This document shows, piece after piece, positions 6,847-61,066 of a stretch of DNA of 64,000 nt (positions within the stretch are counted from its first letter, which is position 1; each line of letters begins with the position of its first letter). This DNA is from Orbicella franksi (lineage: Eukaryota). A program made the translations under genes and the position numbers. Location of the stretch: the NCBI GenBank assembly GCA_964199315.1, contig OZ116701.1:13702001-13766000 (forward strand), written 5' to 3'. Under the pieces are notes generated by a model. The model had not been told where the DNA came from and did not search any database. It saw only the letters and a list, made by a program, of their open reading frames with translations.

Positions 6847-6971
6847 CAGTAATGTATATAATATTATTCACATTCATGAAGGCGCCATATGCATTTAGGG
6901 CATGTAACCTGAGTGTCGATCTTGGGGGAAACATCTGTCATTAAAACTGCAGGTAACCATATCGTAGAATA

Positions 6972-42196: not shown

Positions 42197-43369
42197 TCAC
42201 AGTCTCACAAACGGAACTCCAGTCGAGTTTGCCACGGCTTCGACAATCCTACTTGGGTTGACCACGGCGGCTTCGATGATGACAGTCGATGTTGTTGGAG
42301 GTGGACTGACTGCTCGTGGAGGGGTGTCTGTTGGTGTTGTTTGTGGTGATCGTGGTGATCGTGGTGATGATTGGTTACTGTCTTCATCAGGTGGAGGATC
42401 CATGTCAAATGGATTTTCGTCTTGTCCAATAATTACTGTGTGAGGAGGGGGGATGATTAAGGGTTCCCCACGTGTGTCTGATGCTCTTCCGTCGTCTGTG
42501 TAAAAGGATGCTCTTGCTGATATTGATCCAAAGGACAAAAGAACTGGAGTTGGAACGAGTCTGGAGCGACGTGGACTTGTGAATAAACTTCGATTTGCTT
42601 CTTGAAGCGCTTGGAATATGTTTCGGTCTGTTACTGAACCTGTGTAGGGGGCGTCTTCAGGATATGGAGTGGTGCTGTAGTTTCGAGTGATCAGGATATC
42701 TTGTACACTCACATCATTCTCTCTGGCTTGATTAGGATCCGTTACATAGGCGAATCGATACTTTACGAAACTTAGACATAATTCTAGAGCTGAAGGAATC
42801 ATTCTTTCGAGTATCTTGTAAACTGCGATTCTATAATTATAAACCCAAAATACTTGACCTATTACATTGGCATGAATGTAAATACCATGAAAAGGAGAAT
42901 TGTGATCTCTTTGTGTCAATATGAAACTTTTCATTTTTTCTAAGAATTCATTAAAAACTTCAGAAGAAATATTATGTGGAAATGCTCTCCAACTTAAACT
43001 TCTTCTTGTGTGTATGATACTTGCTCTTCTTGAGATCAGGAATAAGTTGATGGCTGTTATGCTGTCATTGCGTCGAGCACGTAGGGTTAATTCTTCTAGG
43101 TTTAGTGAATTGTCACGGTTTCGCCGACCAACGACTCTTGAACGACGTCGGGTACTTGAAGGTATTGTGCGACAGTTTCCACACATTCTTGTTTCGTTCT
43201 TTGATCTGAGGTGACATGACTTGTGTAAATATTTTCCACAGCATGTTTGCCGTTTACAGTCTAAAATTTCAGTTTTCAGAATGTCTTCTAAACAAATGAA
43301 GCAGCGATCTAATTCTTCTTCTTCGGGTGGAATATTGAGTTGTCTCAGGCTACGTCTTACTTGTGACAT
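42197..43369 (-). CDS. Polinton accessory protein, N-terminal RING-like domain, Pro/Ser/Thr-rich C-terminus, 390 aa
   Basis: CFICLED...TCCGKYLHKSC...CGNC. Confidence 0.7.
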   Translation of the reverse strand: MSQVRRSLRQLNIPPEEEELDRCFICLEDILKTEILDCKRQTCCGKYLHKSCHLRSKNETRMCGNCRTIPSSTRRRSRVVGRRNRDNSLNLEELTLRARRNDSITAINLFLISRRASIIHTRRSLSWRAFPHNISSEVFNEFLEKMKSFILTQRDHNSPFHGIYIHANVIGQVFWVYNYRIAVYKILERMIPSALELCLSFVKYRFAYVTDPNQARENDVSVQDILITRNYSTTPYPEDAPYTGSVTDRNIFQALQEANRSLFTSPRRSRLVPTPVLLSFGSISARASFYTDDGRASDTRGEPLIIPPPHTVIIGQDENPFDMDPPPDEDSNQSSPRSPRSPQTTPTDTPPRAVSPPPTTSTVIIEAAVVNPSRIVEAVANSTGVPFVRL

Positions 43370-43537
43370 GTTTGTGGTGGATTGTGAGAGTATTTTGATT
43401 TTGAGTGGTTTTTTTATATGGTTTGTTTGTATCGTTTCTAAAAATAAAAATTACAAAAAGGGGGGATGGGGGGTATCCCCCCTGAATGAATGTTTTAAAA
43501 AATTGTTTACGTTTTTGGTTCGTCGAGTTCTCATTGG

Positions 43538-43954
43538 TTGTTTGAGGAACGAGACGCATATGTAATGGCTCCTCCTAGAGCACGTTCAGAGATCATGGCT
43601 GACTATTTTCGTTTTCAACAATTACTGGATGACGAGGAAGCACGTTTTGGATACAAGTTGAAGAGAATCGGTTATGTTAGGGAAAAGTTTAAAGAGAACG
43701 ATAAGATGTTGGCTAATCTACGAGTGAGGGAGAGTAATTTTTTGAAAGCATTGGGATCTATTGACAGGATCAGACGTTCTTTGATCAGAATCTACGATGC
43801 AATAACGAAGCATGATGAGGATTATGCGACCAACGATGATGGAGAAATCAATCGACCAGATGATTGGGTTCAGAGGGGAATTCACATACGATGTACAGCG
43901 GAGAACAATTTAGACAACATTGATTACCACATCAAAAGACTTTATTTGATTTAA
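43538..43954 (+). CDS. Polinton hypothetical helical/coiled-coil protein (probable ATG at 43560)
   Basis: Open frame of 138 codons with protein-like composition; no recognisable motif. Confidence 0.55.
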   Translation: MFEERDAYVMAPPRARSEIMADYFRFQQLLDDEEARFGYKLKRIGYVREKFKENDKMLANLRVRESNFLKALGSIDRIRRSLIRIYDAITKHDEDYATNDDGEINRPDDWVQRGIHIRCTAENNLDNIDYHIKRLYLI

Positions 43955-43972
43955 CATGTTAAAGTGTGAAAA

Positions 43973-44527
43973 TTATATGTCGTATAACCATCTCCAGAAA
44001 GCGTGACACTCTTGAACTGAACAGTGACCTTTTTTGCTATTTTTTCTACAAAGACAATTATGAAAACCGCAACTTTTAATCTTAGGTATCATGGCTAAGT
44101 GATCATATTTAGGACAACTGATTAATTCTAAATTAAAACTTGGAATGTTCAGTTCGTCGAGGATGTCTTTTTCGACTCGTCCTCCTTTGTATGCAATCAA
44201 TGTTCTTTTTCCCGTACAGTATTTGGAATAAAGTCTCTGTATTACGTCACGTACTTTGTCTTGACTTAATGCTTCTTCTTCAGGGTCTGGTTCCTACGGG
44301 AGACCACAAACGTTCCTGTTCACGTGTCTGACTGTTTTTCTGTCTTGAATCCAAAGGTTCCTGTAGGGTATGCCAGTGTCGAAGGCTATCCTCCCGTAGT
44401 TACAGTCGTGTGTACAGTATCCAAGTTCTCGTACATAAAATGTTCCTTTAAGTGAATTTCCTTTTAAATTGTAACCATCTAAGTCTAATATGAAACAAAC
44501 TTGTTCTCTTACTTTTTGTTTTTGCAT
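43973..44527 (-). pseudogene. DEDD/DnaQ-like exonuclease-type Polinton protein split by one in-frame TAG (44294-44296)
   Basis: ORFs 44294-44527 and 43973-44200 share one frame with no other stop. Motifs ILDLDGY...VRELG, IAYKGGRVEKD, HCSVQEC. Confidence 0.55.
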
Positions 44528-44560
44528 GATGTTTGGGAGCTCTACTCACTTGTTGCGTCC

Positions 44561-45385
44561 TTAATTCGGGTCTGATCGGTTGTGACTGGCACGGTACTTG
44601 ATGGGTCCACCTTTTTGTACGCATGGTGGAGGATAGCGCTCGGCGCCTGGGTCTGGTATTTGCGTGAACACCCTGAGGTCATCTCCCTCAGGACAACTTC
44701 GGTCAACCCTCTTTACCATGTAGTCCTCGTTGTTCATTCGCACTTTTTTCCAGTAGGCTGCTGTTTGAGGGTCTTTGATATCTGTTAATCGCATGTCGAT
44801 GTCTTGCTGTGGGGTCGGTTTGAACTCTTTCAGTGGTTGTTTTCCTCTCCAAACGGACTTCTTATCCTCAACAGTAACTTCTTTCTCTGGGTCTTCGACC
44901 TTTCTTTGAGGTTTTGGTTTTTCCGCTTCTTCATTTATCCACCTTGCCATTTTATCAGATGGATTTTTATCGGCCCAATTGAAGAAGTCACACTTCTTCT
45001 TACGGCAGCCAAAGTACATTCGACCTGGATTCTTCTCGGATTTGGATATCTTGAGGATGAGGGGGTTTCTGCAGAAGCACTTATTTTTATACTCAAGGTT
45101 TTTCAGCCAGAATTGTGCTACTTGCTTTTCAAATTGCTCTTGGTAGTTTGCTACTTTGTCAGCTCCACAACACACGAGGCAGTCCTTTTGAGGACACCTA
45201 TAGTACTCCCAGGGACCATAGCGGGTTTCAATAATGTTGAACTCCAACAGATAGGTTGGATGCTTGGGACATATGTACACCCGTGTACGCTCGTCTAGCT
45301 CTTCCATTTCTGCTTGCATTCTTTGGTTTAAATCTGCCATGTAGACTTCGGGATTGAACTCAAGGGGGACTTCCTCCACAGTCAC
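44561..45385 (-). CDS. GRF-type zinc-finger protein (true start uncertain)
   Basis: CFCRNPLILKISKSEKNPGRMYFGCRKKKCDFFNWAD is a GRF finger, preceded by a second Cys/His cluster. The frame is open ~55 codons upstream of the GTG. Confidence 0.75.
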   Translation of the reverse strand: MTVEEVPLEFNPEVYMADLNQRMQAEMEELDERTRVYICPKHPTYLLEFNIIETRYGPWEYYRCPQKDCLVCCGADKVANYQEQFEKQVAQFWLKNLEYKNKCFCRNPLILKISKSEKNPGRMYFGCRKKKCDFFNWADKNPSDKMARWINEEAEKPKPQRKVEDPEKEVTVEDKKSVWRGKQPLKEFKPTPQQDIDMRLTDIKDPQTAAYWKKVRMNNEDYMVKRVDRSCPEGDDLRVFTQIPDPGAERYPPPCVQKGGPIKYRASHNRSDPN

Positions 45386-46073
45386 CGAAGGATTGATGAT
45401 GTAATTCGATACAGGTTTGACACTCGTGGATGGGTCTGCTGTTTCCTGTGTGATGGCAGGTTCTGTTTGGTCTGCGAAAAAAAGTGTTCCAAGGATAAAT
45501 ATTATGTTTTTGAAATGTTCTTTCGATATGATCCTTTTTATGTTGTTTCATATTTTCTTTTCGGGCTGGATAACTTTTTTTTGTCTTTTTTCTCGATTGG
45601 ATTATTTGTTGTGCACATTCAGTGTTTGTTCTGTGACATGCGTAAATCCATCCTTCAGTGATCAGTTGAATCCCGATCAGGTATTTTTCCTCTTTCTTAC
45701 ACAGTTTTCCGTTTTTTTTGTTGATTTTCTTTTTCTTTGGAGGAGGAATTGGTCTTACTTGAAATCTGCTTGTAGGTTGTAGCCATTTTGTTATGTTACT
45801 TTGCTCACCTTCTTTGGATACTTTTGACTTGGGTTGTTTTTCTGTGCTGAGCTTTTTTCTCTTTCGCTTGGAAGACTCAAATGGTTGTACGTGTTTTGAA
45901 GACATCTGTAGACTGTTGGTCTTATCGTCTTCTTCGTATTCTTCCAATTTCACCATGTTTTGAATGGACTCCATGTCTGCAATGAAAGAAGAGTGAAAAT
46001 GTTGAACATGATTAAGCTTTTTTATAATAATGAGTATCCAATCAGCAATGAGATTTATATTCTGACCATTCAC
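45360..46073 (-). CDS. Polinton hypothetical Lys-rich protein
   Basis: Long open frame with NLS-like KRKRKK and PPPKKKK. May be frameshift-joined to the GRF ORF. Confidence 0.45.
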   Translation of the reverse strand: MNGQNINLIADWILIIIKKLNHVQHFHSSFIADMESIQNMVKLEEYEEDDKTNSLQMSSKHVQPFESSKRKRKKLSTEKQPKSKVSKEGEQSNITKWLQPTSRFQVRPIPPPKKKKINKKNGKLCKKEEKYLIGIQLITEGWIYACHRTNTECAQQIIQSRKKTKKSYPARKENMKQHKKDHIERTFQKHNIYPWNTFFRRPNRTCHHTGNSRPIHECQTCIELHHQSFGDCGGSPP

Positions 46074-46109
46074 AACACTTCATGACCAAATATGGAAATC
46101 GAGTATACA

Positions 46110-46140
46110 CCAATCAGAACGAATCTTTTCTCTATATAAG
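46110..46140 (+). promoter_or_regulatory. CCAAT box and TATA box upstream of ORF 46204
   Basis: ccaat at 46110-46114 and tatataag at 46133-46140, ~65 bp before the ATG, in a divergent intergenic gap. Confidence 0.5.
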
Positions 46141-46203
46141 AGATGAGCTTTTTTCTTTTCGTTACACTTGGAAAAATTTTGACAGTGAAGTCTGAAAAAA
46201 AAA

Positions 46204-47022
46204 ATGTCTAACAGTGAGACACCAGTGAAGACTGAAGAGAAGACTAAAGAGAAGACCCTTGAGGACTATCATGTCTTTTGCAAACTTGCAGCCTTCCAAT
46301 TGTACTTGGGAAGTGCAAGGGATAACCTACGAGCTCTTCAAAGGTTGAAGAGAAACGAAGACAAGATGTATCACCTAGAGTTTGGTGTGGCCTCTCCTAT
46401 CTATCACTTTCTACAGAGGCAGTTGTCTGAGTGGGGTAAGGACGGTCATCACTTGGTACCGTCGAAAGACGATATCGAAAAGTTTGGACCCACTCTACTC
46501 TTCAACAAACAGCAGGTGAATGAAAGAGAACTGAATGACTACAATGGAAATAAATTCCCAATTCACAAGAGCCGAGAGTTGAAGAAAGAAGACCTGAATG
46601 ATATTGAAGAGGATTTGGATAAGTGGGTTTGTGATTTCAAGGAGAAGCTTGACAAGCATAAGGCAACGCAGTTCAGAGACGAACAGCACCGTCGGTTTAA
46701 CTTGGAGTTTGGTTTGGTGTCGGGTTTGTACTATCGACTGCAGCGTCACTTGATCGACTGGGGCATACGTTCTCACCATCCTGATCTGGATTCAGTGGCT
46801 ACCTATTATGATTCGATAGGTGCAAAGTTCAATAATGAACCGATACGAGAAAACAATGTGTTGTCAGTGGAAACTTATGAGGTGACCCGTGAAGAGGAAG
46901 AAGAGGCAATAGAGGCAGAGGCAAAGGAAGAAGAAGCAAAGAAAGATGAGGTTTGTCAACAACCCTTTCTGTTATCCAAGACGGTGGATGAAGATGAGAA
47001 CCTTCAGTGCATTCCCATGTGA
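46204..47022 (+). CDS. Polinton hypothetical protein with an internally duplicated domain, 272 aa
   Basis: YHLEFGVASPIYHFLQRQLSEWG vs FNLEFGLVSGLYYRLQRHLIDWG. Confidence 0.7.
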   Translation: MSNSETPVKTEEKTKEKTLEDYHVFCKLAAFQLYLGSARDNLRALQRLKRNEDKMYHLEFGVASPIYHFLQRQLSEWGKDGHHLVPSKDDIEKFGPTLLFNKQQVNERELNDYNGNKFPIHKSRELKKEDLNDIEEDLDKWVCDFKEKLDKHKATQFRDEQHRRFNLEFGLVSGLYYRLQRHLIDWGIRSHHPDLDSVATYYDSIGAKFNNEPIRENNVLSVETYEVTREEEEEAIEAEAKEEEAKKDEVCQQPFLLSKTVDEDENLQCIPM

Positions 47023-47167
47023 CTAGCACGTGATCACCAGGCTCGACCAATCACTGGCATTAGACTCAATCTACCAATCCACTCTGTTATGACTTGTAAT
47101 ATATTAGATTCATTTGACGGTAAATCTCAGTCTTGTCCTATCTACTCTTCAGTGACACTAGTCGGAG

Positions 47168-47419
47168 TTGCACGTTAGATTTCAGTTTTGCATTATGTCT
47201 TGTTTTGCTAACAGCGTGAAGAACTGTGAGGGTGATGTTATCCTGTACACCAATAGTAATCAGATTTATGACTTGGTCAAGGATTACGTTGAGATTGCAG
47301 TGCATCCGATGATTGGGAGTTTGGAGGGACCAGACAAGGGTGATCTGTTCATCTTTGACTTTTTGCACAAACATTTTGCTGATGATTTCAAGATGAAAGT
47401 GCAGATTTGGAGGAAATGA
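47168..47419 (+). CDS. Polinton hypothetical protein, 83 aa
   Basis: ATG-initiated and in tandem with the following ORFs; no motif. Confidence 0.45.
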   Translation: MHVRFQFCIMSCFANSVKNCEGDVILYTNSNQIYDLVKDYVEIAVHPMIGSLEGPDKGDLFIFDFLHKHFADDFKMKVQIWRK

Positions 47420-47892
47420 GACCTTCATGGAAAGGTACCGTCATCCCCTTCATCCTACAACAGCATCAACCTGGTGGAAATCCTAATGGTTTGTTCTTTT
47501 TTGATACCATGTGGCACGATGTGAGCCACGACATTGAAACGAATACCATCCATTTCACTAAATCTGCTTACGAACCAACAGAAATCGGTAGAGGGGATAT
47601 CTTGTTTGCCACACAGCCTCTTGTTTGGAATAGCAAAAATGCCATTGAAGAGCTTCTCACACCAGCTCGTCGAGCTCATCACATCTCGACCAATGTGACT
47701 CACAGGATTTCCAATCAGAGCAACAACTGGGTATTCAAGTTACCTACACCCTGTACCGATTATGAACTTGGTGTCTCTATTGAGAACACTTTCGTCTCAT
47801 TGTTTCAGAACATTGAAACGTGGAAAGACCGTTTTTTTTTACCCGAAGGAGTGAGGACGAAAGCTCGTGTGTTGAGTGTGAGGAGAGTTTGA
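47407..47892 (+). CDS. Polinton hypothetical protein, ~161 aa
   Basis: Open frame with protein-like composition. Confidence 0.5.
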   Translation: MEEMRPSWKGTVIPFILQQHQPGGNPNGLFFFDTMWHDVSHDIETNTIHFTKSAYEPTEIGRGDILFATQPLVWNSKNAIEELLTPARRAHHISTNVTHRISNQSNNWVFKLPTPCTDYELGVSIENTFVSLFQNIETWKDRFFLPEGVRTKARVLSVRRV

Positions 47893-48083
47893 GAAAAGCT
47901 TTGTATTGTAGTGACTATGATGAAGCCTTAAAATGGCGTCCCAAATGTGAAAATGGCAGAAAACAATGTAAATATTTTCAATCTGATGTTTTTGACGTTG
48001 AAGATGCTACGGTTACACTTAATTTTTTGATCAGAGGTGGATTGTAAATACGAATGTTTGTTTGATTAAAGTCATTTAACAAC

Positions 48084-48386
48084 ATGGGTTCATTCTTGTC
48101 TCATTACTCTCGTGAGGATTGGAATGATACGTGTGATAAATGTAGAAGAATTCTTCTTGAATGCAAAGAAGATGAATTCAAACTTGTACCAAATGAGTAC
48201 AGTTGTGACCCCGTTTATGAGTTTGAGGAACTGAGACCTTTGGAGGGTAGCGTTTTCAGGTTCATCGTCTTTTGTCTTTGGCTAGAAAAGCAACCGTTGT
48301 CCTATTATCAGTGCCAAAGAATCATAGCAGCTCATCCTTACGCTTGGAAAATTTCCGTCTTTCGTGTGAATTTCTGTACACCATGA
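48084..48386 (+). CDS. Polinton small protein with N-myristoylation-like start (MGSFLS), 100 aa
   Basis: Good Kozak context (aacATGG), MGxxxS and a CxxC. Its stop overlaps the integrase ATG. Confidence 0.55.
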   Translation: MGSFLSHYSREDWNDTCDKCRRILLECKEDEFKLVPNEYSCDPVYEFEELRPLEGSVFRFIVFCLWLEKQPLSYYQCQRIIAAHPYAWKISVFRVNFCTP

Positions 48387-49462
48387 AGTCCAAGAAAAAA
48401 TCCATTTCCTTAGCTCAGGTGCAACGTTTGTACAGGGATCCAACGAAACCCGGTAGTTTAGGTGGGTTGAGTCGTTTTGCAAAAGCCAACAAGATTTCTG
48501 TATCTTTGGCTCGAAAAGCTTTGGAAGCAGATTTGGGGTACACGTTACATAAACCTAGACGTCGTCACTTTGAAACTTCACCGGTGATGGTATTTAGTAT
48601 CGATCAACAGTGGGCAGCAGATTTGGTAGAAGTTACTAACATTTCCAGGTACAATAAAGGAACGAAGTACCTCCTGACTGTGATTGACGTGTTTTCGAAA
48701 TTTGCTTGGGTGGAACCCCTTAAATCCAAGACGGGTCAAGTTGTGACAGAGGGTTTCAAGAAAATATTGAAAAGAAGTAAGGGGAGAAAACCTCTCAATT
48801 TACAAACGGACGACGGTAAGGAATTTTACAACAAGACGTTTCAGACCTTCTTGAAGCAAAAGAACATTCACCACTTTTCTACCAGTGGGGATACAAAGGC
48901 AGCTGTGGCTGAGCGTTTCAATCGAACTTTGAAAGAACGATTGTACCGTTACTTTACGGTGAAGAACAGTCTTTCGTTTCTCGACGTCTTACAGAAATTA
49001 GTAAGTGGTTACAACGCTTCGAACCACAGGAGCATTAAGATGGCCCCCAAGAAAGTGTCGAACAAGAACGAATTGGAAGTGTGGAACAATTTGTACCAAA
49101 ATCGATTGAGTTCTAAGAAAAGAAAGAGTAAGTTCAAGAAAAACGACAAAGTACGATTGAACAAAAAGCATCGTCCTTTCAAGAAAGGTTATCTCCCTGG
49201 ATGGACCGAGGAGGTGTTTATCGTCACTCGAGTGAATCGTGGAGTTGTACCTACTTACAAATTGAAAGAATGGGACGGTGAACCCTTGGAGGGTACTTTT
49301 TACGAAGAGGATTTACAGAAAGTCAATGTGTCCAATGACGACTTGTTTAGAGTGGAGAAAGTCATCAAGCAAAAGGGTACCAACGTCCTCGTGCGGTGGA
49401 AAGGTTGGCCTGCTAAATACGACAGCTGGATTCCTAAGAAGTCAGTCTATGTAAAGGTGTGA
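48383..49462 (+). CDS. INT: Retroviral-like (rve) DDE integrase with C-terminal chromodomain-like region
   Basis: QWAADL (D), LQTDDGKEF (D), AERFNRTLK (E), GYLPGWTEEVF, VLVRWKGWPAKYDSWIP. ATG at 48383; intact. Confidence 0.95.
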   Translation: MKSKKKSISLAQVQRLYRDPTKPGSLGGLSRFAKANKISVSLARKALEADLGYTLHKPRRRHFETSPVMVFSIDQQWAADLVEVTNISRYNKGTKYLLTVIDVFSKFAWVEPLKSKTGQVVTEGFKKILKRSKGRKPLNLQTDDGKEFYNKTFQTFLKQKNIHHFSTSGDTKAAVAERFNRTLKERLYRYFTVKNSLSFLDVLQKLVSGYNASNHRSIKMAPKKVSNKNELEVWNNLYQNRLSSKKRKSKFKKNDKVRLNKKHRPFKKGYLPGWTEEVFIVTRVNRGVVPTYKLKEWDGEPLEGTFYEEDLQKVNVSNDDLFRVEKVIKQKGTNVLVRWKGWPAKYDSWIPKKSVYVKV

Positions 49463-49493
49463 ATACAATCAGAGTTTTTCATTTGAAGCAAGT

Positions 49494-51237: not shown

Positions 51238-51240
51238 ATC

Positions 51241-52626
51241 ATATCCGACATTGCGCCTCACGCAGGTTCGGCAACAGTGTCGAATCCGTCACTGAATCTC
51301 TTTACGATTCCACCGACGGATCTTAGTGTTTACAGTAAGCGATACGTACAAATCAATCCGTTCACCACTGGAATTATTCCAGTGACGTTTCAGATCGATC
51401 CTCAGGAAGACTACATCGACTTTACCCAGAGTTACTTTGAGTTTGAGGTGGGTTTCAAGAAAGCTAATGGAGGAAATTTGGTGGCTGCCGAGAATGCGTT
51501 TCCAGTGAACAACTTGTCTCATTCCATGATCAAGCAGATGAACGTCCGATTGAATCAAACCTTGATAAGCGAACAATCGGACACGTATTCGTACAAAGCT
51601 TACATCGAGACTTTACTTCACCACGATCGACAGGATGGTGAAACAGTCCTGACTCCCGAGGGGTGGCAAAACTACGTGGATGTCCCTCCACTATACACAG
51701 CAAACAACTTGGATAATGCTACACCCGATGCAGCTTGGACTGCTTTACCTGAGAATCAAAAGACAAGCATCACCAAAGCACGAGGTGAACGAGCCAAATA
51801 TGTAGGAGGCAAGAAAAACATCATGAGATTCAAACCTCACTCGGAACTATTCAATTTGAACAAGCTGATTATAACAGGCATACAGATTGACTTGCAGATT
51901 TACTTCAACAATCCCGAATTCTACTGGAATTCTGTTGGAGGTATAGCAACAAGATTGGCTGAAGCCGACATCAAAGTGCGCTTGGTTCTCTGTCAATTCC
52001 GAATTAACCCTGACGTGTATCGAGAATTGGCTGTCAAGATGGAATCCTCAAAGGCAGTGAGTTACCCTACGGTCAGGAGTGAAATCAGAACTTACAGTTT
52101 TGCAAATGACAGAAGACAATACGAAATCAACAACCCTTGGCAGGGTAGAGGACCCAACCTGGTGGTAATGGCATTGGTGGACACCCGAGCCTTCAATGGT
52201 GATTACACTCGTGATCCCTTTTGCTTTCAAAAAATGAGCTTGAGTAGTATCAAGCAACTCTTCAGAGGTGAGGAATACCCGTATGAGACCTTGGAAATCA
52301 AGCACGATGGCAATGATTTGGACAATCGAGGCTATTACCGATTTCTTCAAGCTACCGAATGTTTGAGAAAGGATCGAGGAAACATGTTGACAGAGAAAGA
52401 CTGGGGACACAATAAAAACTGTACACTTTTCTGTTTTAACAATGCAGCCAACGGTGATCTCTTCAGTTCGGTCCTGAATCCGAAACAGTTGGGAGAGATC
52501 CGGTACATTCTTAACTTTGGAGCCAATCCAGCAGCTAACTTCACAGTCATCTTGTTTGCCGAATTTGAGAATCTCTTGGAAATCGACAAGAACAAAGCCG
52601 TCACCTACGACGTGTATCAGCGTTAA
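51241..52626 (+). CDS. MCP: Double jelly-roll major capsid protein; no ATG at the expected start
   Basis: SLNLFTIPPT, YIDFTQSYF, NNLSHSMIKQMNVRLNQ, YSYKAYIETLL, FNGDYTRDPFCF, NCTLFCF, LFAEFENLLEID match the Polinton MCP pattern. The frame opens at 51238, with ATA at 51241 and GTG at 51277. Confidence 0.9.
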   Translation: MSDIAPHAGSATVSNPSLNLFTIPPTDLSVYSKRYVQINPFTTGIIPVTFQIDPQEDYIDFTQSYFEFEVGFKKANGGNLVAAENAFPVNNLSHSMIKQMNVRLNQTLISEQSDTYSYKAYIETLLHHDRQDGETVLTPEGWQNYVDVPPLYTANNLDNATPDAAWTALPENQKTSITKARGERAKYVGGKKNIMRFKPHSELFNLNKLIITGIQIDLQIYFNNPEFYWNSVGGIATRLAEADIKVRLVLCQFRINPDVYRELAVKMESSKAVSYPTVRSEIRTYSFANDRRQYEINNPWQGRGPNLVVMALVDTRAFNGDYTRDPFCFQKMSLSSIKQLFRGEEYPYETLEIKHDGNDLDNRGYYRFLQATECLRKDRGNMLTEKDWGHNKNCTLFCFNNAANGDLFSSVLNPKQLGEIRYILNFGANPAANFTVILFAEFENLLEIDKNKAVTYDVYQR

Positions 52627-52628
52627 CA

Positions 52629-53204
52629 ATGCAAAAGATTGCTCTGACTGACACTCAATTAGACGAACTTGTTGCAAGTCAACCGATATTACAACAGTAT
52701 TACCAAGGAACTTTTGCCTGTAACGAATTACCCCGGAAACCCGTTAAAGATGGACCAGCTGCCTACATCGTGAACACAGATCCAGCAGGTCGACCTGGTG
52801 AACACTGGATCGCTCTTTGGACACAAGATGGAGTGTGTGAAATGTTTGATAGTTATGCGGTACCTTTAGAAGTGTACGGAGAAAAAACAACAGATCCTCT
52901 TTATGAATGGTTTGGAAAATGGTGGAAGATGAATGTCAAGAGAAACGCACATGCCCTTCAGTCTCTTACTAGTAAAAGTTGTGGAGACTACGCTTTCTTC
53001 TTTTTGTTGAACAGAGCCCAGGGAAAAAGCATGAACGAATTTCAGGACATGTTCACTCAAAGAGATTACAAATGGAACGACAAGACAGGAAGAATGTTAA
53101 AGGAACTGATAGTGAACGAAAGAAAGTTTCGCGAAAAAGCACGCCAATTTAGACAATCTACCAGACTTCCTACCGGTGTAACTCAGTATTTGTACATGAT
53201 GTAA
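52629..53204 (+). CDS. PRO: Adenain-like (adenovirus-type) cysteine maturation protease, 191 aa
   Basis: IVNTD...GEHWIAL (His), FDSY (Asp), LQS (Gln), SCGDY (Cys). Confidence 0.92.
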   Translation: MQKIALTDTQLDELVASQPILQQYYQGTFACNELPRKPVKDGPAAYIVNTDPAGRPGEHWIALWTQDGVCEMFDSYAVPLEVYGEKTTDPLYEWFGKWWKMNVKRNAHALQSLTSKSCGDYAFFFLLNRAQGKSMNEFQDMFTQRDYKWNDKTGRMLKELIVNERKFREKARQFRQSTRLPTGVTQYLYMM

Positions 53205-53227
53205 TGGTTGTAAAATAAAAAACTACC

Positions 53228-53491
53228 TTATAGTTTACTCTTGAGTTGATGTTCGCGTACTTCGTCAGGGAACAAAAATGGTTCACCAAAATTGACGGTC
53301 TTGCAAACGGGACAAAACTGATTAATGGGATGTAATCCAAAATTGGCTTTGATTCGACAACCAAAATGAAACCAACTCCCACAGCAGTGAGTCTTGGTGA
53401 CACAATGAACACGGTTGGCAGGATTGGGATGCTCGTGATATGCTTTCGAACAGAACAAACAGAATCTGGATTCCCACGGAGGACGATTCAT
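53228..53491 (-). CDS. RING-like zinc-finger protein, 87 aa
   Basis: CLFC...HCCGSWFHFGC...CPVC. Confidence 0.7.
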   Translation of the reverse strand: MNRPPWESRFCLFCSKAYHEHPNPANRVHCVTKTHCCGSWFHFGCRIKANFGLHPINQFCPVCKTVNFGEPFLFPDEVREHQLKSKL

Positions 53492-53551
53492 TCAGACTGA
53501 AAAAATGAAAAAACATCCATATAAACTCAAAGTGAATGATAGATCTTTCAT

Positions 53552-54232
53552 TTGGAACGAGTGTCAAGTATGGCTAAATGTTCTGCTTTTAAATTTCATA
53601 CTCCTTCGAGTATCATGTGTGTTGGACCTAGCGGAAGTGGAAAAACGTTTTTTACGACAGAACTGGTCACGAAAAACTTACACTTGTTCAAGAGAAGACC
53701 AAAAGCGATTTATTTTTGCTTCAGTATCTGGCAACCGAGTTATAACACTATGAAGAAAAATGGTGTGAAATTTTACCAGGGTATTCCAGACACCAAGCTA
53801 TTACCTAAATGGTTTCCTAAAGGAGGTTTACTCATCATGGACGATTTGATGGAGGAGGCAGGAAACGACAAGAGAGTCTTGGATCTTTTTACCAAGGAAT
53901 CACATCATCGCGATATTACGGTCATGTATTTGACTCAGGACATGTTTCCTCCAGGAAAGTTTGCCAAGAGTATTTCAAGAAACGCACATTACGTTATCAC
54001 TTTCAAGAATCCCAGGGACAATGTGGGTTTGCGAAATTTACTGACTCAAGCGTTTCCCATGCGTTGGAAGGAGGTTCTAACCACATACCAACGAATAACC
54101 CAAAGACCTTACGGTTACATGGTATTGGATTTTCACCCCAGTTCCTCCGACAATGTGAGAGTGGTGAGTCACCTATTAAATTCAGAAGGTCCTAATCGTT
54201 GTTATCAGTTCAAGCAAAATGTTGAGAAGTGA
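53552..54232 (+). CDS. ATPase: A32/FtsK-like genome packaging ATPase, 226 aa
   Basis: Walker A GPSGSGKT, Walker B LLIMDD, SHHRDITVMYLTQD, SISRNAHY, PYGYMVLDF. Confidence 0.95.
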   Translation: MERVSSMAKCSAFKFHTPSSIMCVGPSGSGKTFFTTELVTKNLHLFKRRPKAIYFCFSIWQPSYNTMKKNGVKFYQGIPDTKLLPKWFPKGGLLIMDDLMEEAGNDKRVLDLFTKESHHRDITVMYLTQDMFPPGKFAKSISRNAHYVITFKNPRDNVGLRNLLTQAFPMRWKEVLTTYQRITQRPYGYMVLDFHPSSSDNVRVVSHLLNSEGPNRCYQFKQNVEK

Positions 54233-54831: not shown

Positions 54832-55475
54832 TGTGTGAATCAACGGTCGACAATTCAAAAACTATTTTGGAAAAATGGTTAGTTAAAAGAGGACCTATCG
54901 AGGACGTGTTGAAGGAAATTTATGCTCCTAAGAGCTACCAAATGGGTAAACCACAAGATGGAACCAATACGACTTTGGGTACGTGGTTAGAACAGGGTGT
55001 ATCTCTCCAAGTGGCAAGACACATGGAGGATCACAAGCAGCATCTTTGTCATAAGAACGAAGTCAGAAATGACTTAGGATGGGTGAAAATTCCTTGGTTC
55101 AAGAGATTCAGGAATGTTTTGAGAGCCAATTACAAACTTGCAAACCTAGGTGACATTGATTTTCCAGCTCTTAAAAAAATGAAACGGGCAAGATGTGCAG
55201 TCGAAGTCTGTGAATTGGCCGACGAACATAAAGAGACCTATTTCACTGACGAATTGCACGAGTGGCACGACATGATTCAGAAGAGTATAAGAGGTGAGGA
55301 AGACAGTGACGAGGACAGTGACGGTTACGAGAGTGACGAGAGTAACATATCTATGATCACCAGTCCTGGTGAAAAACGAAAACGACCTCGAAGAAGCATC
55401 AGAATCGCTGAGATTGAATGGCAACGTCGGGGACCCCTTCACCGAGTTCACCGCGTTCACAGCGTTGGTCACTAA
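54828..55475 (+). CDS. Polinton hypothetical protein with acidic patch and basic tail, 215 aa
   Basis: Open frame; EEDSDEDSDGYESDE followed by KRKRPRR. Confidence 0.6.
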   Translation: MMCESTVDNSKTILEKWLVKRGPIEDVLKEIYAPKSYQMGKPQDGTNTTLGTWLEQGVSLQVARHMEDHKQHLCHKNEVRNDLGWVKIPWFKRFRNVLRANYKLANLGDIDFPALKKMKRARCAVEVCELADEHKETYFTDELHEWHDMIQKSIRGEEDSDEDSDGYESDESNISMITSPGEKRKRPRRSIRIAEIEWQRRGPLHRVHRVHSVGH

Positions 55476-56047
55476 GTAGAACTCCCTCTCCTAGAGTTTC
55501 TCCAGCAGGAATTGGAGTGGGTTATCAACCTTTATTTGTAGACTCAAACATAGACTTTGCTAACATCGCTCCAGTCACTGTAGGAGTTGGAACGTCAGTT
55601 ACACCTTCAATAGTGGCTCCGATTCCCACCTCGGTAGGTGTAGCAACCACAACACAACCTGCAGTGACTGTTCCTACTCAGGTTGGAGTAGGTACCGTTC
55701 CTACTCAGGCTGGAGCGGCTTCGACAAATCGTAGAAGTAGATCTAGATCTAGAAGTAGATCTAGAAGTACAAGTTCGGCAGGGAGTAGACAAAGATCCAC
55801 ACCCTCACCGAGACAACCCACTGGAAACGTCGGAACTACGGCTGGTACTAGTTCCACGACACGGGGGACTACTAGAATGAATCAAGACGAATTACAAAGA
55901 CAATTGGAACTTCTACTGAATGACCAACGACAAACGTCTGCAGGACGAAGAATAGCTGGGATCACCACCACTAACACCATCACCACCACGTATAAAGACG
56001 GTGGTCCACCTAGAGTGGCTCGCACTTCGACCAGAGTACGAAATTAG
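55418..56047 (+). CDS. Low-complexity Ser/Thr/Arg-rich protein with an RS dipeptide run, 209 aa
   Basis: RRSRSRSRSRSRST; TTTNTITTTYKDGGPP near the C-terminus. Confidence 0.65.
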   Translation: MATSGTPSPSSPRSQRWSLSRTPSPRVSPAGIGVGYQPLFVDSNIDFANIAPVTVGVGTSVTPSIVAPIPTSVGVATTTQPAVTVPTQVGVGTVPTQAGAASTNRRSRSRSRSRSRSTSSAGSRQRSTPSPRQPTGNVGTTAGTSSTTRGTTRMNQDELQRQLELLLNDQRQTSAGRRIAGITTTNTITTTYKDGGPPRVARTSTRVRN

Positions 56048-56052
56048 ACACA

Positions 56053-56562
56053 ATGGACTCAACGGACGGAGTGAACCAAAAAAAACTTCAGGATCTTCGT
56101 AGACAGTACCATAAAAAATGGTGGTGTCATTCACAACGATTTCAGTTTTTTAAAGGATGGAATGCCATTCTCAACGGTACGGTACTTCTCGTCATGGCTT
56201 TGGCCATGCTTGTAGGTTCCGTGTGGAAGAACAGTTTTGCCATGATTGCTTTGACGGCAATTGGAACATTGGTAAAAGGATGGGCTGATTTCAAAAAGTT
56301 TCCCAACAAAGTGGAGATGAGTAAATTTGCCTATACCACTTATGCCAAATGTTTGATCGAAATCGACACTTACATCAATGGTGTGGAACTGAATGACCTA
56401 CAAGTGTTTCTATCCAAAATGCAAACGATAGAGGATATCGTTATCGACATGGCACCACCTTTCACCCAAAAGTGTAGTCAAATGTACGACAAGCAAACTT
56501 TCACGAGTTTGCATCAAAGTGAAAATGGAAGTATCGATATAAGTGATGGCTCCAACGTTTAG
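56053..56562 (+). CDS. Two-transmembrane protein, SLATT-like architecture, 169 aa
   Basis: Basic helix, two hydrophobic segments (AILNGTVLLVMALAMLVGSVW; FAMIALTAIGTLV), then helical FPNKVEMSKFAYTTYAKCLIEI. The family call is inference. Confidence 0.6.
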   Translation: MDSTDGVNQKKLQDLRRQYHKKWWCHSQRFQFFKGWNAILNGTVLLVMALAMLVGSVWKNSFAMIALTAIGTLVKGWADFKKFPNKVEMSKFAYTTYAKCLIEIDTYINGVELNDLQVFLSKMQTIEDIVIDMAPPFTQKCSQMYDKQTFTSLHQSENGSIDISDGSNV

Positions 56563-56582
56563 GACATCAATTACACCTTACG

Positions 56583-56822
56583 ATGGCAAAGACAAGACGT
56601 AGAAAAAGTAGAGTGAATAGGAAAAGAAAAAGAACCAAACGAAAACAAAAGGGGGGTATCATTCCCTTAGCAGCAGCCATACCAGCACTTGTAGCAGCAG
56701 GAAAAGCAGCAGCTATGGGTGGAATATCTGCAGGTGTAGGATTTGGAGTTCGTAAGGGTTCGGAACGAGCTACGAAACCTAAGAAACGTAAGCGAGATAA
56801 ATACATGTACATTCCTCGATAG
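56583..56822 (+). CDS. Adenovirus pX/mu-like core protein precursor, 79 aa
   Basis: Arg/Lys-rich N-half, QKGG, then IIPLAAAIPALVAAG...GGISAGVG. This parallels adenovirus pX (MRGG-ILPLLIPLIAAAIG) in size and layout. Confidence 0.72.
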   Translation: MAKTRRRKSRVNRKRKRTKRKQKGGIIPLAAAIPALVAAGKAAAMGGISAGVGFGVRKGSERATKPKKRKRDKYMYIPR

Positions 56823-56859
56823 AACACATTCAGGAGTTCCTTCCAAAACAAGACACATC

Positions 56860-57480
56860 ATGGATCTTCCTCAGCTTCAAGGGCATCGACACTTGGACGA
56901 TGTGATATCTAAGTACGAAAAAATCTACGAAAAATACGGTAAACCTAAAGGTAAAAGCAAGAGTAAAAAGAAAAAAACTGTCATGCCGAGTTCAACACCT
57001 CAACCACTTTTCACCTCAACTCCAGCACCGAAAAGACGAATCGCTCTTCAAACACTTCAACCGACTCCAACTGGTGTCCTCAACACTGGTGAGTTACCAT
57101 CCACAGTGACAATACGTAGGAAAGGCAAGAGGGCTCCCGTAAAGAAAGACGACAAAAAGGAACGAATGAAAAAGAGACATTGGTACGAAGACAAATTCGG
57201 AGACGTGAAGAAATTTGTCAAGAAACCTAAGAAACCTCGAAAGAAAAGAAAATTCAAAAAAGGAACCAAAGGATTCAAACTCCTTGACAAACGAATCACT
57301 TTGTTGAGTCTGATTCGTAAAATACCACAAGCCAAAATTCCTCTGGTTCGTTTGTTGAAAGTGGAAAGTATCGATGGAAGAGGGACCCTGTTGACTCTGA
57401 TGAAAAGAATACCCCAAGCCAAGTTGAAATTGAGGAGATTGATGTCAAAAACAGACCTGCGCAATATGATCAAACCCTAA
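56860..57480 (+). CDS. Lys-rich Polinton protein with a repeated IPQAK motif
   Basis: ATG at 56860; LLSLIRKIPQAKIPL / LLTLMKRIPQAKLKL. Confidence 0.6.
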   Translation: MDLPQLQGHRHLDDVISKYEKIYEKYGKPKGKSKSKKKKTVMPSSTPQPLFTSTPAPKRRIALQTLQPTPTGVLNTGELPSTVTIRRKGKRAPVKKDDKKERMKKRHWYEDKFGDVKKFVKKPKKPRKKRKFKKGTKGFKLLDKRITLLSLIRKIPQAKIPLVRLLKVESIDGRGTLLTLMKRIPQAKLKLRRLMSKTDLRNMIKP

Positions 57481-57816
57481 GTGATAAAAGGGATTTCAAG
57501 CATTTTCATTTTTTCATTCTGTGCAACGATGTCTTCGAAGAGGTTGTATCCCACATTTTCAGAAAAAGTCAAGGATTTCCAAATAATTTCCAAATCACGT
57601 CAGCGGAGTATACAACAAATGGACATGCTTGTACTGAAGTTCAGGGACACGACTATAAAAGAGGAAGACTTCGACAAATTGGATGAGATTGTTCGTAAGC
57701 ACCGGAGTGGTGAAGAACCATTTGAGGAGAACTACATTGCCAGTGAGTTTCCACCCTCTGAGTGGAATTACATGCTTAAAAGAGGTTTGGTTGTAGACGA
57801 AAGCAAATTAGTATGA
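57481..57816 (+). CDS. Polinton hypothetical protein (probable ATG at 57528)
   Basis: Open frame; its stop overlaps the next ATG. Confidence 0.5.
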   Translation: MIKGISSIFIFSFCATMSSKRLYPTFSEKVKDFQIISKSRQRSIQQMDMLVLKFRDTTIKEEDFDKLDEIVRKHRSGEEPFEENYIASEFPPSEWNYMLKRGLVVDESKLV

Positions 57817-58166
57817 GTCGTAGTCATTTTGCGACTCACCGTCAATTTTTGCACGGAATTTTGAAACAAGCTGATCGATACAAGCGACAAGTCATGTTAG
57901 AAAATGCTAACAAAGAACAGATCAATGCAGTCAGTGAAATGGTTTTGAACCTATTGGGTGGAAAAATTCCTGTCAGTCGACCTGTCTATAAATCCCTTAA
58001 AAAGAAGACAGCAAAGCTGAGAGAACTGGGTAGCAGACGAACCAGTTTAAAAAAGAGAAAGACAATACTATTGAATCAATTGAAGTCAAAACAGAAAGGT
58101 GGAAGTATCTTGTGGAAAGGTTTGACCAATTGCTACAACGTTTGTTGCGGTGGGAGACGAAGATGA
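57813..58166 (+). CDS. Conserved-type basic Polinton protein ending near QKGG, 117 aa
   Basis: EQINAVSEMVLNLLGGKIPV...KLRELG...SLKKRKTILL...QKGG resembles a common Polinton core-like ORF. Confidence 0.65.
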   Translation: MSRSHFATHRQFLHGILKQADRYKRQVMLENANKEQINAVSEMVLNLLGGKIPVSRPVYKSLKKKTAKLRELGSRRTSLKKRKTILLNQLKSKQKGGSILWKGLTNCYNVCCGGRRR

Positions 58167-58507
58167 GTTCAGACATGTTTACTAAACTGGTCACCTTATT
58201 ACATGAGACCAACAAAACCGTCGAGCACTTCCAAGAGAGAGAAAAGAAAAAGAAGAGTTAGCACGTCAATGGCAAACAAAATACGAAAAACTTCATCAAT
58301 TGTATTTAGCCAAGGAGTTTGATAAGGTTTGTTCAGACTGTCAACGTCTATCAGTGGAAACAGAACCTGGCGATACAATAACGTTGTGTCAAAACTGTTC
58401 AGTGAAAAAAGAGACCATTGAATCTCTCAAGATTAAGCAAAAAGAAACAGAGGAAAAAGTTGCTTATTGGGAAGAACTCTTTCACACTGCTTCTCGTCAT
58501 GAACGAA

Positions 58508-59215
58508 ATGATCATGGTACCGGCTAAAAACTTTGAGAATCTCACTCAATACTTCAAAGGACAAATTTCAGATAGTACTCTGTTAAACAAAGCAGGTAGA
58601 GTGGCCGCCAAAAAACATATCATCCTAACTAGTAAAAAAATTCCTGCTGCTACAGCTGTTAAGATGGCCAAACCCTTAGCAAGACAGCAGCGTCGTTTGA
58701 CCAAACGAATTCGTTTAGGACCTGGTGGGAGTACTGGAGGAAATGAACCCATCGACTTAGATAACAATGACGAAGGTATGGTGGAAGGACCCTTGGAAAA
58801 CATGTTGCGTAAGATCATCAAAGGGTCTGCAGTTAAAAAAGAACCACAAACTCCTCATTTTACTGGTAGCTACAGTAAAGCCAAGCGAAGACTTCTTCCA
58901 CACACCCCAGCCTCACAAATACCTGTGAGAACCTTGAAATCTTCTCCTCACCCCAAACCGACTTCACTCAAATCGACTCCAAAATCATCACTTGGTAAAG
59001 AAGTCAAAAAGAAGGTCTTAAAAGCAGCGGGTGAGAGTTTGATGCATTCACTTGGTCTACCTAGTACAAGTAGAACAACCTCAAAAGGAAAACAACCCAA
59101 GAAGAAACGTAAAACAGAGTTGGAAAAACTAGCTCCTTTACCTGGTTGGGAAAATTGGTACCCTCCCGGACATAAACTGAGAAAAGGTCTACAGCGTGAT
59201 TATGACAGCGACTAA
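58508..59215 (+). CDS. Polinton hypothetical basic, Pro/Ser/Thr-rich protein
   Basis: Likely ATG at 58508 within track ORF 58418-59215. Confidence 0.55.
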   Translation: MIMVPAKNFENLTQYFKGQISDSTLLNKAGRVAAKKHIILTSKKIPAATAVKMAKPLARQQRRLTKRIRLGPGGSTGGNEPIDLDNNDEGMVEGPLENMLRKIIKGSAVKKEPQTPHFTGSYSKAKRRLLPHTPASQIPVRTLKSSPHPKPTSLKSTPKSSLGKEVKKKVLKAAGESLMHSLGLPSTSRTTSKGKQPKKKRKTELEKLAPLPGWENWYPPGHKLRKGLQRDYDSD

Positions 59216-59596
59216 AAAGAAAAAGTCCCGAGCGGTTACTCGAAAATCATCTAAAGGGAGAGTCACCAAAACAACCAAGAAGACAGGATCCAAAAAACGT
59301 CGAGGATTTGACCTTCAAAAAATGATAGCTAAGACGGGAAGGGAATTTCATTGGCCCGGTTATCAGTACATGGGACACATCTGGAGAAGAGACTAAAGCG
59401 AGGGGACCCTGGCATAAATAGATTAGGCAGAGTATCCAAACAGCATGACATCGACTACAGTATAGCTAGAAACTTGGCTGACAAGCACAAGGCTGACAAA
59501 AAGATGATACAAAGCATCAACAAGTTTAAGAAAAAGAACTTAACCGAGAGATTCGTTAAGAAAGTGATGCAAACCAAGACAATGTTAAATCTCTAA
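59196..59596 (+). pseudogene. Parvovirus VP1u-type phospholipase A2 (PLA2X), frameshifted near 59375
   Basis: Frame A ends ...HWPGYQYMG. Frame B continues GTHLEKRLKRGDPGINRLGRVSKQHDIDY...ADKKM. The Ca-loop GPG is missing, consistent with a 7-nt deletion. Confidence 0.85.
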
Positions 59597-59620
59597 GTGT
59601 TTATTGATCTCATAATGTAA

Positions 59621-60424
59621 TTATATTTCATTGTTTTTGATTGCATTTGACACAGCATTAAAAAAATCTACATGTTTAAAAATCTCTTGCACTGAGACAT
59701 CTTTTTTCAATTCAACCTGATCATAAAGATAAGAAGGATTACCAAATGCTGCACCTTTCGGAAAACCTTTCAGATATTCATCATCTTGAACTATGATTTT
59801 TGTAAATTTTATACATTGTTCACATTTTCGTTTACAAGTTCTCACTATAGCCTGTCTTTTTTCTTTACAAGAATCATTGACATCCATTTCTAAAAGTTCC
59901 CTCAAAAAGTGATAAACAGGATGATCTCCACCATTTTTTTGTCTTAACAGATATCTACTCTTCATCTCTCGTAGCATAGGTAAAATATAACCTAAAGATA
60001 ATCTGGAAGCAATGTCTTCCCAATCACTCGTCTCCTTTTCAGGTAAATCAAACAGAAAATATATACACACACTGTAAATTCTATTGCTAGTTCTACTTGC
60101 AGCTAGAAGAGGATTATCAGTTATCTTCAAAGCTTTTTTTACGTACTTTCTTTCTAACTTAGTTAAAGTAGGCGGTCTTGGATTCTTATATAAATCATAA
60201 TGATTTAAGAACGTTTTCTCAATCTCCTCTGCTTGTAGAGGAGTGAATTTTTCGGCTCTTTTAACTTTATCTAAAACTTGAAATCGCTCTTTACAAATTG
60301 GACACCACACTGCATTTTTTACATCAATACACTCTTCATGAACACGCGAAAAACAACATCCTGTAGATTTTAATGGATTCTCTTCGCTTGTAGAACTTTT
60401 TTTGCAAACAAAACAATCATCCAT
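59621..60424 (-). CDS. RING-like zinc finger + helical domain protein, 267 aa
   Basis: CFVC...TGCCFSRVHEEC...CPIC. Confidence 0.72.
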   Translation of the reverse strand: MDDCFVCKKSSTSEENPLKSTGCCFSRVHEECIDVKNAVWCPICKERFQVLDKVKRAEKFTPLQAEEIEKTFLNHYDLYKNPRPPTLTKLERKYVKKALKITDNPLLAASRTSNRIYSVCIYFLFDLPEKETSDWEDIASRLSLGYILPMLREMKSRYLLRQKNGGDHPVYHFLRELLEMDVNDSCKEKRQAIVRTCKRKCEQCIKFTKIIVQDDEYLKGFPKGAAFGNPSYLYDQVELKKDVSVQEIFKHVDFFNAVSNAIKNNEI

Positions 60425-60688
60425 CTAAAAAACAAGAATCAAATGTAACCATTTTCTAATGTCATCAACCATTTCACAACTTTTGTTCATTTCTGTTTCG
60501 CAGGACATATTCAACTGTCTTGCCGCAAAACAAATGACAAAATAACGTCTGACGAGTGCAATATTATCTGCAAATGTCAATAGGGTCAAATAAAAATCAG
60601 ACAAGCAGTTCTCTTTCTCGCTCTCCAACCAAAAATCGACAATCAGTCCAAGTCTATTCAGTTCATTCCATTTTTCGTCTAGTAACAT
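60425..60688 (-). CDS. Polinton hypothetical protein, 87 aa
   Basis: Open frame whose stop directly abuts the ATG of the downstream RING gene. Confidence 0.5.
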   Translation of the reverse strand: MLLDEKWNELNRLGLIVDFWLESEKENCLSDFYLTLLTFADNIALVRRYFVICFAARQLNMSCETEMNKSCEMVDDIRKWLHLILVF

Positions 60689-60832
60689 ACCTCTCCTTCA
60701 AATCAGTAACTCCCAGAAGAAACACAGTTCGAGGCGTAGCTTCACCCGTGAGTCTGACAATAAACAGTAAATAAAAAACGTTAATCTTCAGTTCAGTTGT
60801 GCTCGGTCCAGTGCGTTTCAAAATCAATTCAA

Positions 60833-61066
60833 TCATTCTTCGTCGATGTGAGGCCTCAATTTGTCTTCCCCAAAACGTAAGCATTCACAAACTGGACACT
60901 TTCTGTTATTAAAAGGTAAATTCCTCTGTTCGTCGAGTTTACAGGACCAATGGAATACGCTATTGCAACACTTGCTCCTGTAAAAACATCCCAGACTCGC
61001 GTCGACACGCACATCACAAATGTTACATTTCATGAGGAATAAATCGAGACATCGATGATGAAACAC
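60833..61066 (-). CDS. RING-like zinc-finger protein (may continue by frameshift into 60663-60884)
   Basis: CNIC...SKCCNSVFHWSC...CPVC. Confidence 0.65.
   Translation of the reverse strand: MFHHRCLDLFLMKCNICDVRVDASLGCFYRSKCCNSVFHWSCKLDEQRNLPFNNRKCPVCECLRFGEDKLRPHIDEE

Follow-up and report, generated by a model that had tools for sequence, protein, structure and literature searches.

The 64,000-nt stretch of the coral Orbicella franksi analysed here (contig OZ116701.1, positions 13,702,001 to 13,766,000; hereafter the window) contains a Maverick/Polinton element in which four open reading frames (ORFs) encode small cysteine-rich fingers, named RING1 to RING4 after the fold predicted for them (Table 1). 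A six-frame scan of the whole 64-kb window identified exactly four full motifs of the form C-x2-C..CC-x4-H-x2-C..C-x2-C, all on the minus strand, and none was found in 300 order-2 Markov control sequences of 22 kb. This bears out the four minus-strand ORFs that a first-pass annotation, made from the sequence alone, had described as a modular arsenal of viral ubiquitin ligases.

Table 1. Features of the Maverick/Polinton in the window; positions are those of the window.
Feature	Position	Strand	Remarks
RING1, 390 aa	42197..43369	-	RRSxR motif aa 5-9, RING aa 23-66, then tail
Full motif of RING1	43172-43303	-	six-frame scan
RING2, 87 aa	53228..53491	-	bare RING; sits between protease and ATPase genes
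Full motif of RING2	53303-53461	-	six-frame scan
RING3, 267 aa	59621..60424	-	N-terminal RING and helical domain with further Cys cluster
Full motif of RING3	60293-60415	-	six-frame scan
RING4, 66 aa	60833..61033	-	bare RING; ATG at 61033
Full motif of RING4	60887-61027	-	six-frame scan
Fifth finger	61030..61152	-	broken in window copy; motif scan, sister copies
Maverick/Polinton element, 23.9 kb	41767..65670 (in window to 64000)	+	passes window end; AGTAGT termini, CATATA target-site duplication
Retroviral-type integrase with chromodomain	48383..49462	+	Pfam
Putative major capsid protein	51526..52626	+	element marker; label inferred from position
Adenain-type protease	52629..53204	+	Pfam, E 5e-4
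Packaging ATPase	53570..54232	+	Pfam Pox_A32, E 9e-4
Protein-primed DNA polymerase B	61151..63889	+	Pfam; ORF ends short of usual end

The RING genes and their host element

Three of the ORFs (RING1 to RING3) agree with the coordinates first assigned to them. RING4 starts further downstream, at its ATG, and the boundary first given for it (61066) falls inside the core of a fifth finger located immediately upstream. In the window copy this fifth finger is broken, its first C-x2-C pair (61120-61152) lying in a 40-aa ORF and its CC-x4-H-x2-C core (61049-61078) in a different frame. In a sister copy of the element on contig C10 the fifth and fourth fingers are joined in a single 97-aa ORF. This tandem ORF (L016:140-430) has seven ligand pairs only, the middle C-x2-C being common to both fingers, and a Met stands two residues ahead of that middle pair in the four copies seen, so that an internal start could yield the second finger alone. 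Beyond the finger, 324, 24, 223 and 17 C-terminal residues are found in RING1 to RING4, respectively. True C-terminal tails are present in RING1 and RING3 only, whereas RING2 and RING4 are bare RINGs; the four varied, unrelated tails originally envisaged are reduced to two.

The RING genes reside in a complete Maverick/Polinton, in keeping with the initial identification of the element as a Polinton. It has AGTAGT termini, a 6-bp target-site duplication (CATATA) and terminal inverted repeats (TIRs), the TIR mate showing 96% identity over 174 nt (L013). Pfam matches within it comprise rve+Chromo, Peptidase_C5, Pox_A32 and DNA_pol_B_2, corresponding to integrase, protease, ATPase and protein-primed DNA polymerase B, those of the protease and ATPase falling below curated cut-offs. 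The ORF at 51526-52626, for which no Pfam match was found, we take to be the capsid gene from its position. AGTAGT-type ends are described as a Maverick motif in the available text of PMC8097293.

Searches of the host genome gave at least 108, 71, 16 and 7 matches for RING1, RING2, RING3 and RING4, respectively, and at least 113 for the capsid gene; once split pieces were merged and cross-hits and two weak rows removed, these lower bounds became 105, 68, 13, 4 and 112. A RING match lies at most 18 kb from the capsid gene at 86/112 capsid loci, compared with an expectation set by the ~0.8% of the genome within the same distance of a capsid gene, albeit that the copies share descent and the counts are hence not independent events. 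One RING match was found at 43 of these 86 loci, two at 39, three at 1 and four at 3. A RING gene is a trait of most Polintons in this genome, and the set first noticed in a single element recurs. The four-to-five-finger set, seen in 3 elements, is the upper end of the range: among the elements fetched, those of the subfamily to which the window copy belongs have five cores, those on C5, C13 and C6 have three and those on C9 and C1 have two.

All 136 RING matches near capsid loci are on the strand opposite to the capsid gene. A constant minus-strand position was nevertheless rejected as a rule for the family, since another RING type occupies the core strand in 4 elements; among the three cores of the C5, C13 and C6 elements, one is on the core strand. 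This additional type is a bare RING, arranged back to back with the RING1 gene of a different Maverick subfamily (L037:1063-1329, L040, L045, L052). RING1 also occurs as inverted pairs remote from capsid genes; there are 14 of these, and the 4 that were fetched all have an ATPase gene. These ATPase-only small elements (L033-L036, e.g. G000:C7:23958800-23964500) measure ~6-7 kb and carry one RING1-type gene per arm, with inverted arms of 1.7-2.05 kb that are 96-99.7% alike and flank a Polinton-type ATPase. The RING1-type ORF is open from its ATG in both arms of L035 and interrupted in others.

The RING genes appear to be under purifying selection. The ratio of non-synonymous to synonymous substitution rates (dN/dS) ranges from 0.12 to 0.67 in 15/15 RING pairs, which overlap one another, with control genes at 0.14, 0.15 and 0.45 (the last being the protease), all given as values without significance test. 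Public databases contain 42 relatives of RING1 and 22 of RING3, and relatives at 20-30% identity retain both ligands and tails; stops are present in several RING relatives. No homologues of RING2 were found by a search using RING2 alone as query, and a RING1 relative used as query gave no locus among viral contigs; there was no match in the phage collection.

As for common descent, the four genes had been called paralogs at first. With the ligands masked, the likeness of RING2 and RING4 exceeds chance (0/5000 shuffles reach it) and that of RING1 and RING2 is marginal (83/5000), whereas the other four pairs show no likeness above chance in 5000 shuffles. A tree of 161 domains grouped only RING2 with RING4 (support 89); it was built by a quick method from 55 columns and leaves 85/157 inner branches open. 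RING2 and RING4 are clearly alike, and the common spacing makes a single origin of all the fingers plausible.

Fold and type of the fingers

The fingers have eight Cys/His ligands in four pairs, separated by loops of RING-like length, and all eight are invariant in 24/24 aligned domains, these having been chosen by the ligand motif itself. When a profile of the 24 domains was compared with solved structures in the PDB, ranks 1-29 were all RING domains of ubiquitin ligases (E3s), with Pirh2 best (E 9e-7) and Arkadia, RNF165 and gp78 among the top matches; the first PHD domain appeared at rank 30 (E 7e-4). At E<=0.1 Pfam assigned zf-RING_2 to 14/24 domains. The best 150 library matches of the domain profile comprise 90 of CC type, 47 RING-H2, 1 PHD-like and 12 unparsed, which points to a RING-H2-like variant that also exists outside Polintons. 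The CC-x4-H variant was for instance observed in Sel1-repeat proteins (P0122, P0138, P0140, P0161, P0169, P0171), 5/6 of which have a MYND finger.

AlphaFold models were obtained for RING1 and RING3, with predicted local distance difference test (pLDDT) scores of 75.5 and 74.7, RING2 and RING4 being assigned through the shared profile. Best VIA matches of the RING1 model were Arkadia (Z 4.6, root-mean-square deviation (rmsd) 3.1, 59 aligned), RNF4 and gp78 (Z 4.2, rmsd 1.7, 43 aligned). For the RING3 model the top Foldseek matches were APC11 and RBX1 (prob 0.99, E 0.1-0.2) and the top VIA rows were U-box/RING (Z 5.5, rmsd 3.3, 51 aligned). Among the families listed, RING or U-box domains come first with both fold models, and RING precedes PHD in the profile ranking. 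PHD fingers are characterized by C-x2-4-C-x4-H spacing and a Trp two residues ahead of ligand 7; here the two central Cys are adjacent and the PHD-type Trp occurs in 0/23 domains.

The C4HC3 RINGv type, to which the first-pass annotation had considered the fingers close, is not supported. Domains of this type, as in MARCH proteins and K3/K5 of Kaposi's sarcoma-associated herpesvirus (KSHV), have C-x-C-x7-H spacing and transmembrane helices after the RING. The coral fingers have CC-x4-H, Pfam RINGv matched 0/24 domains at E<=0.1, and no transmembrane segment was detected in the four ORFs (best 19-aa hydropathy 0.43-1.24); a RINGv/K3 type was rejected on these grounds. What the coral fingers have in common with KSHV K3/K5 and MARCH is the C4HC3 ligand order, as opposed to spacing and transmembrane helices, and K3 appears only at rank 52 of the coral-domain profile. 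Cellular RING-H2 E3s (Pirh2, Arkadia/RNF111, RNF165, gp78, RBX1, APC11) are nearer, giving the best profile and fold matches and mostly sharing the hydrophobic C-x-I-C residue and the linchpin Arg/Lys discussed below, but theirs is the C-x-H-x2-H spacing. In the coral domains the fourth ligand is a Cys beside the third (24/24), so the canonical RING-H2 pattern fails, and the central-helix Trp is absent.

Several observations weigh against this assignment. The single window ORFs remain under every Pfam cut-off (best E 0.014-0.09), and fold scores are low, with Foldseek never reaching E<=0.001 and Z values of at most 5.5. With the profile of the RING3 family, RING and PHD domains both appear as weak matches (EL5 0.006, KDM5A 0.025), and Pfam likewise gave weak matches to PHD_NSD (7/24) and PHD (3/24). 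Non-ligase RINGs, such as that of arenavirus Z, are found among the matches of the RING3 model. Taken together, the domains are likely RING fingers rather than PHD, of a CC-x4-H variant closest to RING-H2.

Ubiquitin-ligase activity involves contact with a ubiquitin-conjugating enzyme (E2), and the E2-binding face appears partly retained. It was scored in the 23/24 domains that could be parsed, at positions known from RING E3s in general, as is the role of the linchpin residue. The hydrophobic residue of C-x-I-C is retained in 23/23 domains and a linchpin Arg/Lys after the last Cys in 17/23, the window copies RING1 to RING4 having R, K, K and E, respectively. Pro after Cys7 is found in 11/23, with Gly, Gln or Ser instead in 12/23, and 0/23 have the central-helix Trp that forms part of the E2 interface, compared with 37/47 RING-H2 matches. 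Its absence from all 23 counts against all fingers being active, and some may be inactive; the Glu of RING4 and the replaced Pro weigh in the same direction. Several RING E3s that lack the Trp are active. According to the available text of PMC5654768, the E2 is contacted by the Trp and by hydrophobic loops. On the host side only two unspliced E2-like genes were found: a UBE2D-like frame at L053:1531-1947, which seems to have Gly where the catalytic Cys is usual, and a more distant one.

Architecture of RING1 and transcription of the element

RING1 carries a short arginine motif ahead of its finger. R[RQH]SxR is found 17-19 residues before the first RING Cys in 30/30 RING1 relatives whose N-terminal RING is complete, whereas its background frequency is 3 in 7999 aa; 6/36 aligned relatives are without such a RING, and the alignment leaves out one copy of this genome that has a stop upstream. 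The window copy reads RRSLRQL. The acidic-patch motif of HMGN, Dsup and Dot5 has the same R-R-S-x-R core with three essential arginines, required for nucleosome binding in yeast Dot5 (PMC13347269, available part). All three arginines are present in the window copy, with Gln at the consensus Leu, and the coral motif differs in being fused at fixed spacing to a viral RING, as part of a putative binder. This suggests that the RING1 lineage encodes a putative nucleosome-docked viral ligase. Against this, RRSxR could be no more than a signal for nuclear import or a kinase target, and the 30 sequences are related by descent.

A hydrophobic-then-acidic stretch of the [VI][VI]LETDEE type follows the RING in 29/36 RING1 relatives and is missing in the window's subfamily. 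A strict SUMO-interacting motif (SIM) was rejected for this stretch, to which the check was limited: it has three hydrophobic residues as opposed to the four-position core given in the available text of PMC3174244, and the window copy is without it. The RING1 tail is modelled as a confident alpha/beta domain (~aa 90-230) followed by a low-complexity Pro/Ser/Thr end. No usable Atlas match was found for it, and its structural matches were weak FtsZ-like or helical ones only (Foldseek E>0.5; VIA Z<=4.2). The RING3 tail had no match, both tails having been folded only as parts of the full-length proteins; the Atlas matches of RING3 are viral RING clusters, all scoring <0.9 and taken as leads only.

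Fourteen RNA-labelled runs contain 82-93% of the words of the RING3-4 region; RNA runs in which the element occurs bear the label coral metagenome. In three of the runs contig depth over RING3-4 is 38, 17-21 and 8-11, compared with ~2-14 for the unique host-flank pieces listed. Contigs of two RNA runs show a 337-nt GT-AG-type skip at window 45472-45808 on the minus strand (joint 45471/45809), which by length and open frame would join ORF 45360-45974 to a GRF zinc-finger ORF at 44561-45340. This spliced joint indicates processed antisense RNA from the element; none of the joints listed falls within the RING genes. The depths may not reflect expression of the RING genes: the host flank is covered in 27-28/30 bins of RNA runs, so that DNA carry-over is possible, and RING1 is barely covered in the RNA-run contigs. 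A polyA raw-read run gave 0 reads on the element and is uninformative, the organism not being evident in it.

Contigs of the RNA runs also cover a host gene 4 kb from the element (34833-37664, minus strand), a single ORF of 943 aa with ankyrin repeats and a Mab-21 (cGAS-like) nucleotidyltransferase domain. Directly left of the element (38619-41491) lie a tandem array of 18-nt units and a retrotransposon-like region in decay, which includes an ORF for an aspartyl protease. Further upstream an ~8.8-kb tandem duplication (3391-8745 and 12227-17581) contains LINE-like remnants and a 309-aa receptor-like ORF, presumably of a G-protein-coupled receptor (GPCR).

Proposed function and relation to known systems

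We consider it fairly probable that the fingers are viral effectors of the ubiquitin system, with RING1 aimed at chromatin. In this view RING1 and RING3 would each act as a single-subunit E3, using the RING to bring in a host E2 and the tail to find targets, and the bare RING2 and RING4 would serve as partners or decoys. RING1 may dock on chromatin through the HMGN-like arginine motif just before its RING, and this docking would lift the silencing of the element, whether integrated or incoming. The motifs and their conserved spacing, the element, the distribution and strand of the copies and dN/dS<1 are observed; the RING fold is predicted, and that the proteins bind zinc, recruit an E2, have particular targets, dock on nucleosomes or counter host defence is inferred. 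A more specific version is rather doubtful: a multi-gene ubiquitin toolkit whose commonest long member, a nucleosome-docked E3, combines an HMGN-like arginine anchor, a variant RING, in most relatives a SIM-like acidic stretch, and a tail without clear fold match, de-silences the element as ICP0 does for herpesvirus, and is kept twice, once in each inverted arm, in the small ATPase-only satellites.

RING folds devoid of ligase activity, acting as zinc-stabilised adaptors or as dominant-negative decoys for host E3s, E2s or viral proteins in the way of arenavirus Z or of inactive RING partners, are the most serious alternative, even if an unlikely one. The missing Trp and the frequently replaced Pro fit such a role, as does the fact that RING2 and RING4 have almost nothing outside the finger, and the RINGs of arenavirus Z and Slx1 score on par with those of E3s. 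On the other hand, the remaining two E2-face positions are largely kept, active E3s without the Trp exist, and the combination of RING and tail in RING1 and RING3 is that of single-subunit E3s. That the domains would instead be PHD-like or other chromatin-reading zinc fingers regulating viral transcription is improbable. The C4HC3 order is common to PHD, Pfam and the RING3 profile give some PHD matches, and an extra Cys four residues ahead of CC is invariant in 11 aligned RING1 sequences; yet this Cys is missing from RING3 and many RING2 relatives, 29 RING chains precede the first PHD, both models match RING/U-box first and the PHD-type Trp is absent. Lowest of all we rate the idea of decaying passengers or convergent Cys-rich ORFs devoid of a viral role. 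The broken fifth finger, the stops in several relatives and the unsupported four-way ancestry would agree with it, but it is largely refuted by dN/dS<1 in all pairs, with values that overlap the protease control, and it sits badly with the recurrence of RING genes at capsid loci and with distant relatives that keep ligands and tails.

With regard to other viruses, the RING of herpes simplex ICP0 is of the C3HC4 type and that of poxvirus p28 is preceded by a KilA-N domain. No sequence link of the coral RINGs to ICP0 was found, and membership of the ICP0 family was rejected, given that the coral fingers are C4HC3 and depart from the strict SIM consensus. A p28 type was rejected too, as the RING stands at the N-terminus of the coral proteins and KilA-N is not among their Pfam matches. 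ICP0 does offer an analogy, being a viral N-terminal RING with a long tail and a nuclear anti-silencing role as proposed for RING1 (PMC3174244, available part); the loosely SIM-like stretch of most RING1 relatives is a further resemblance. Likewise the 'Oncoid' genes of adintoviruses, described in the available text of PMC8502044 as having LxCxE next to paired CxxC, were rejected as a match: LxCxE occurs in none of the four ORFs, though RING3-5 lie upstream of PolB. Giant viruses also have several RING genes per genome, such as five E3s in CpV-BQ2 (PMC6459981, available part), yet in genomes of hundreds of genes compared with four to five fingers in 24 kb.

That viral RING E3s occur in Polinton-like viruses is already published. 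Predicted E3s were reported for protist Polinton-like viruses and virophages, in 61 viruses (PMC7805220, available part), as well as for CpV-PLV Curly (PMC6459981), and a RING finger cluster, PC_000452, appears in the available part of bioRxiv 10.64898/2026.07.28.741278. As in the coral, these are small dsDNA viruses of the Polinton lineage that integrate and carry a RING/E3 accessory gene of predicted function. In the available text, however, presence is given per virus and no multi-gene set is reported, whereas the coral Maverick has up to five fingers, the CC-x4-H core and conserved tails. No RING-finger or ubiquitin-ligase mention was found by term search in the main text of the coral polintovirus survey PMC11131425, with its section 8 and one short supplement, or of the adintovirus paper PMC8502044 and part of its supplement, nor in the main text of PMC8097293 (vertebrate Maverick), PMC11296320, PMC11071308, PMC9952930, PMC12220804 and bioRxiv 10.64898/2026.10.13.758929; where ring fingers are named in PMC5803895, the meaning is an unrelated one. 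Two things were not found in print, namely a set of several CC-x4-H genes in animal Mavericks and a RING1-type protein with an HMGN-like motif, although figure labels, supplements, Repbase and subscription papers may list such genes.

Polintons are abundant in animals as endogenous viruses, and most of their accessory genes lack annotation; in the available text of the coral survey (PMC11131425), proteins are often given as 'unknown' and none as a RING. If the fingers are E3s, they point to host defences that restrain cnidarian Polintons, probably chromatin silencing, and provide small testable proteins with which to find them. An HMGN-like anchor on a viral RING would, if true, be a new way of aiming ubiquitin at nucleosomes. 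If the fingers are decoys, they would still represent a viral RING variant that recurs and escapes the Pfam cut-offs.

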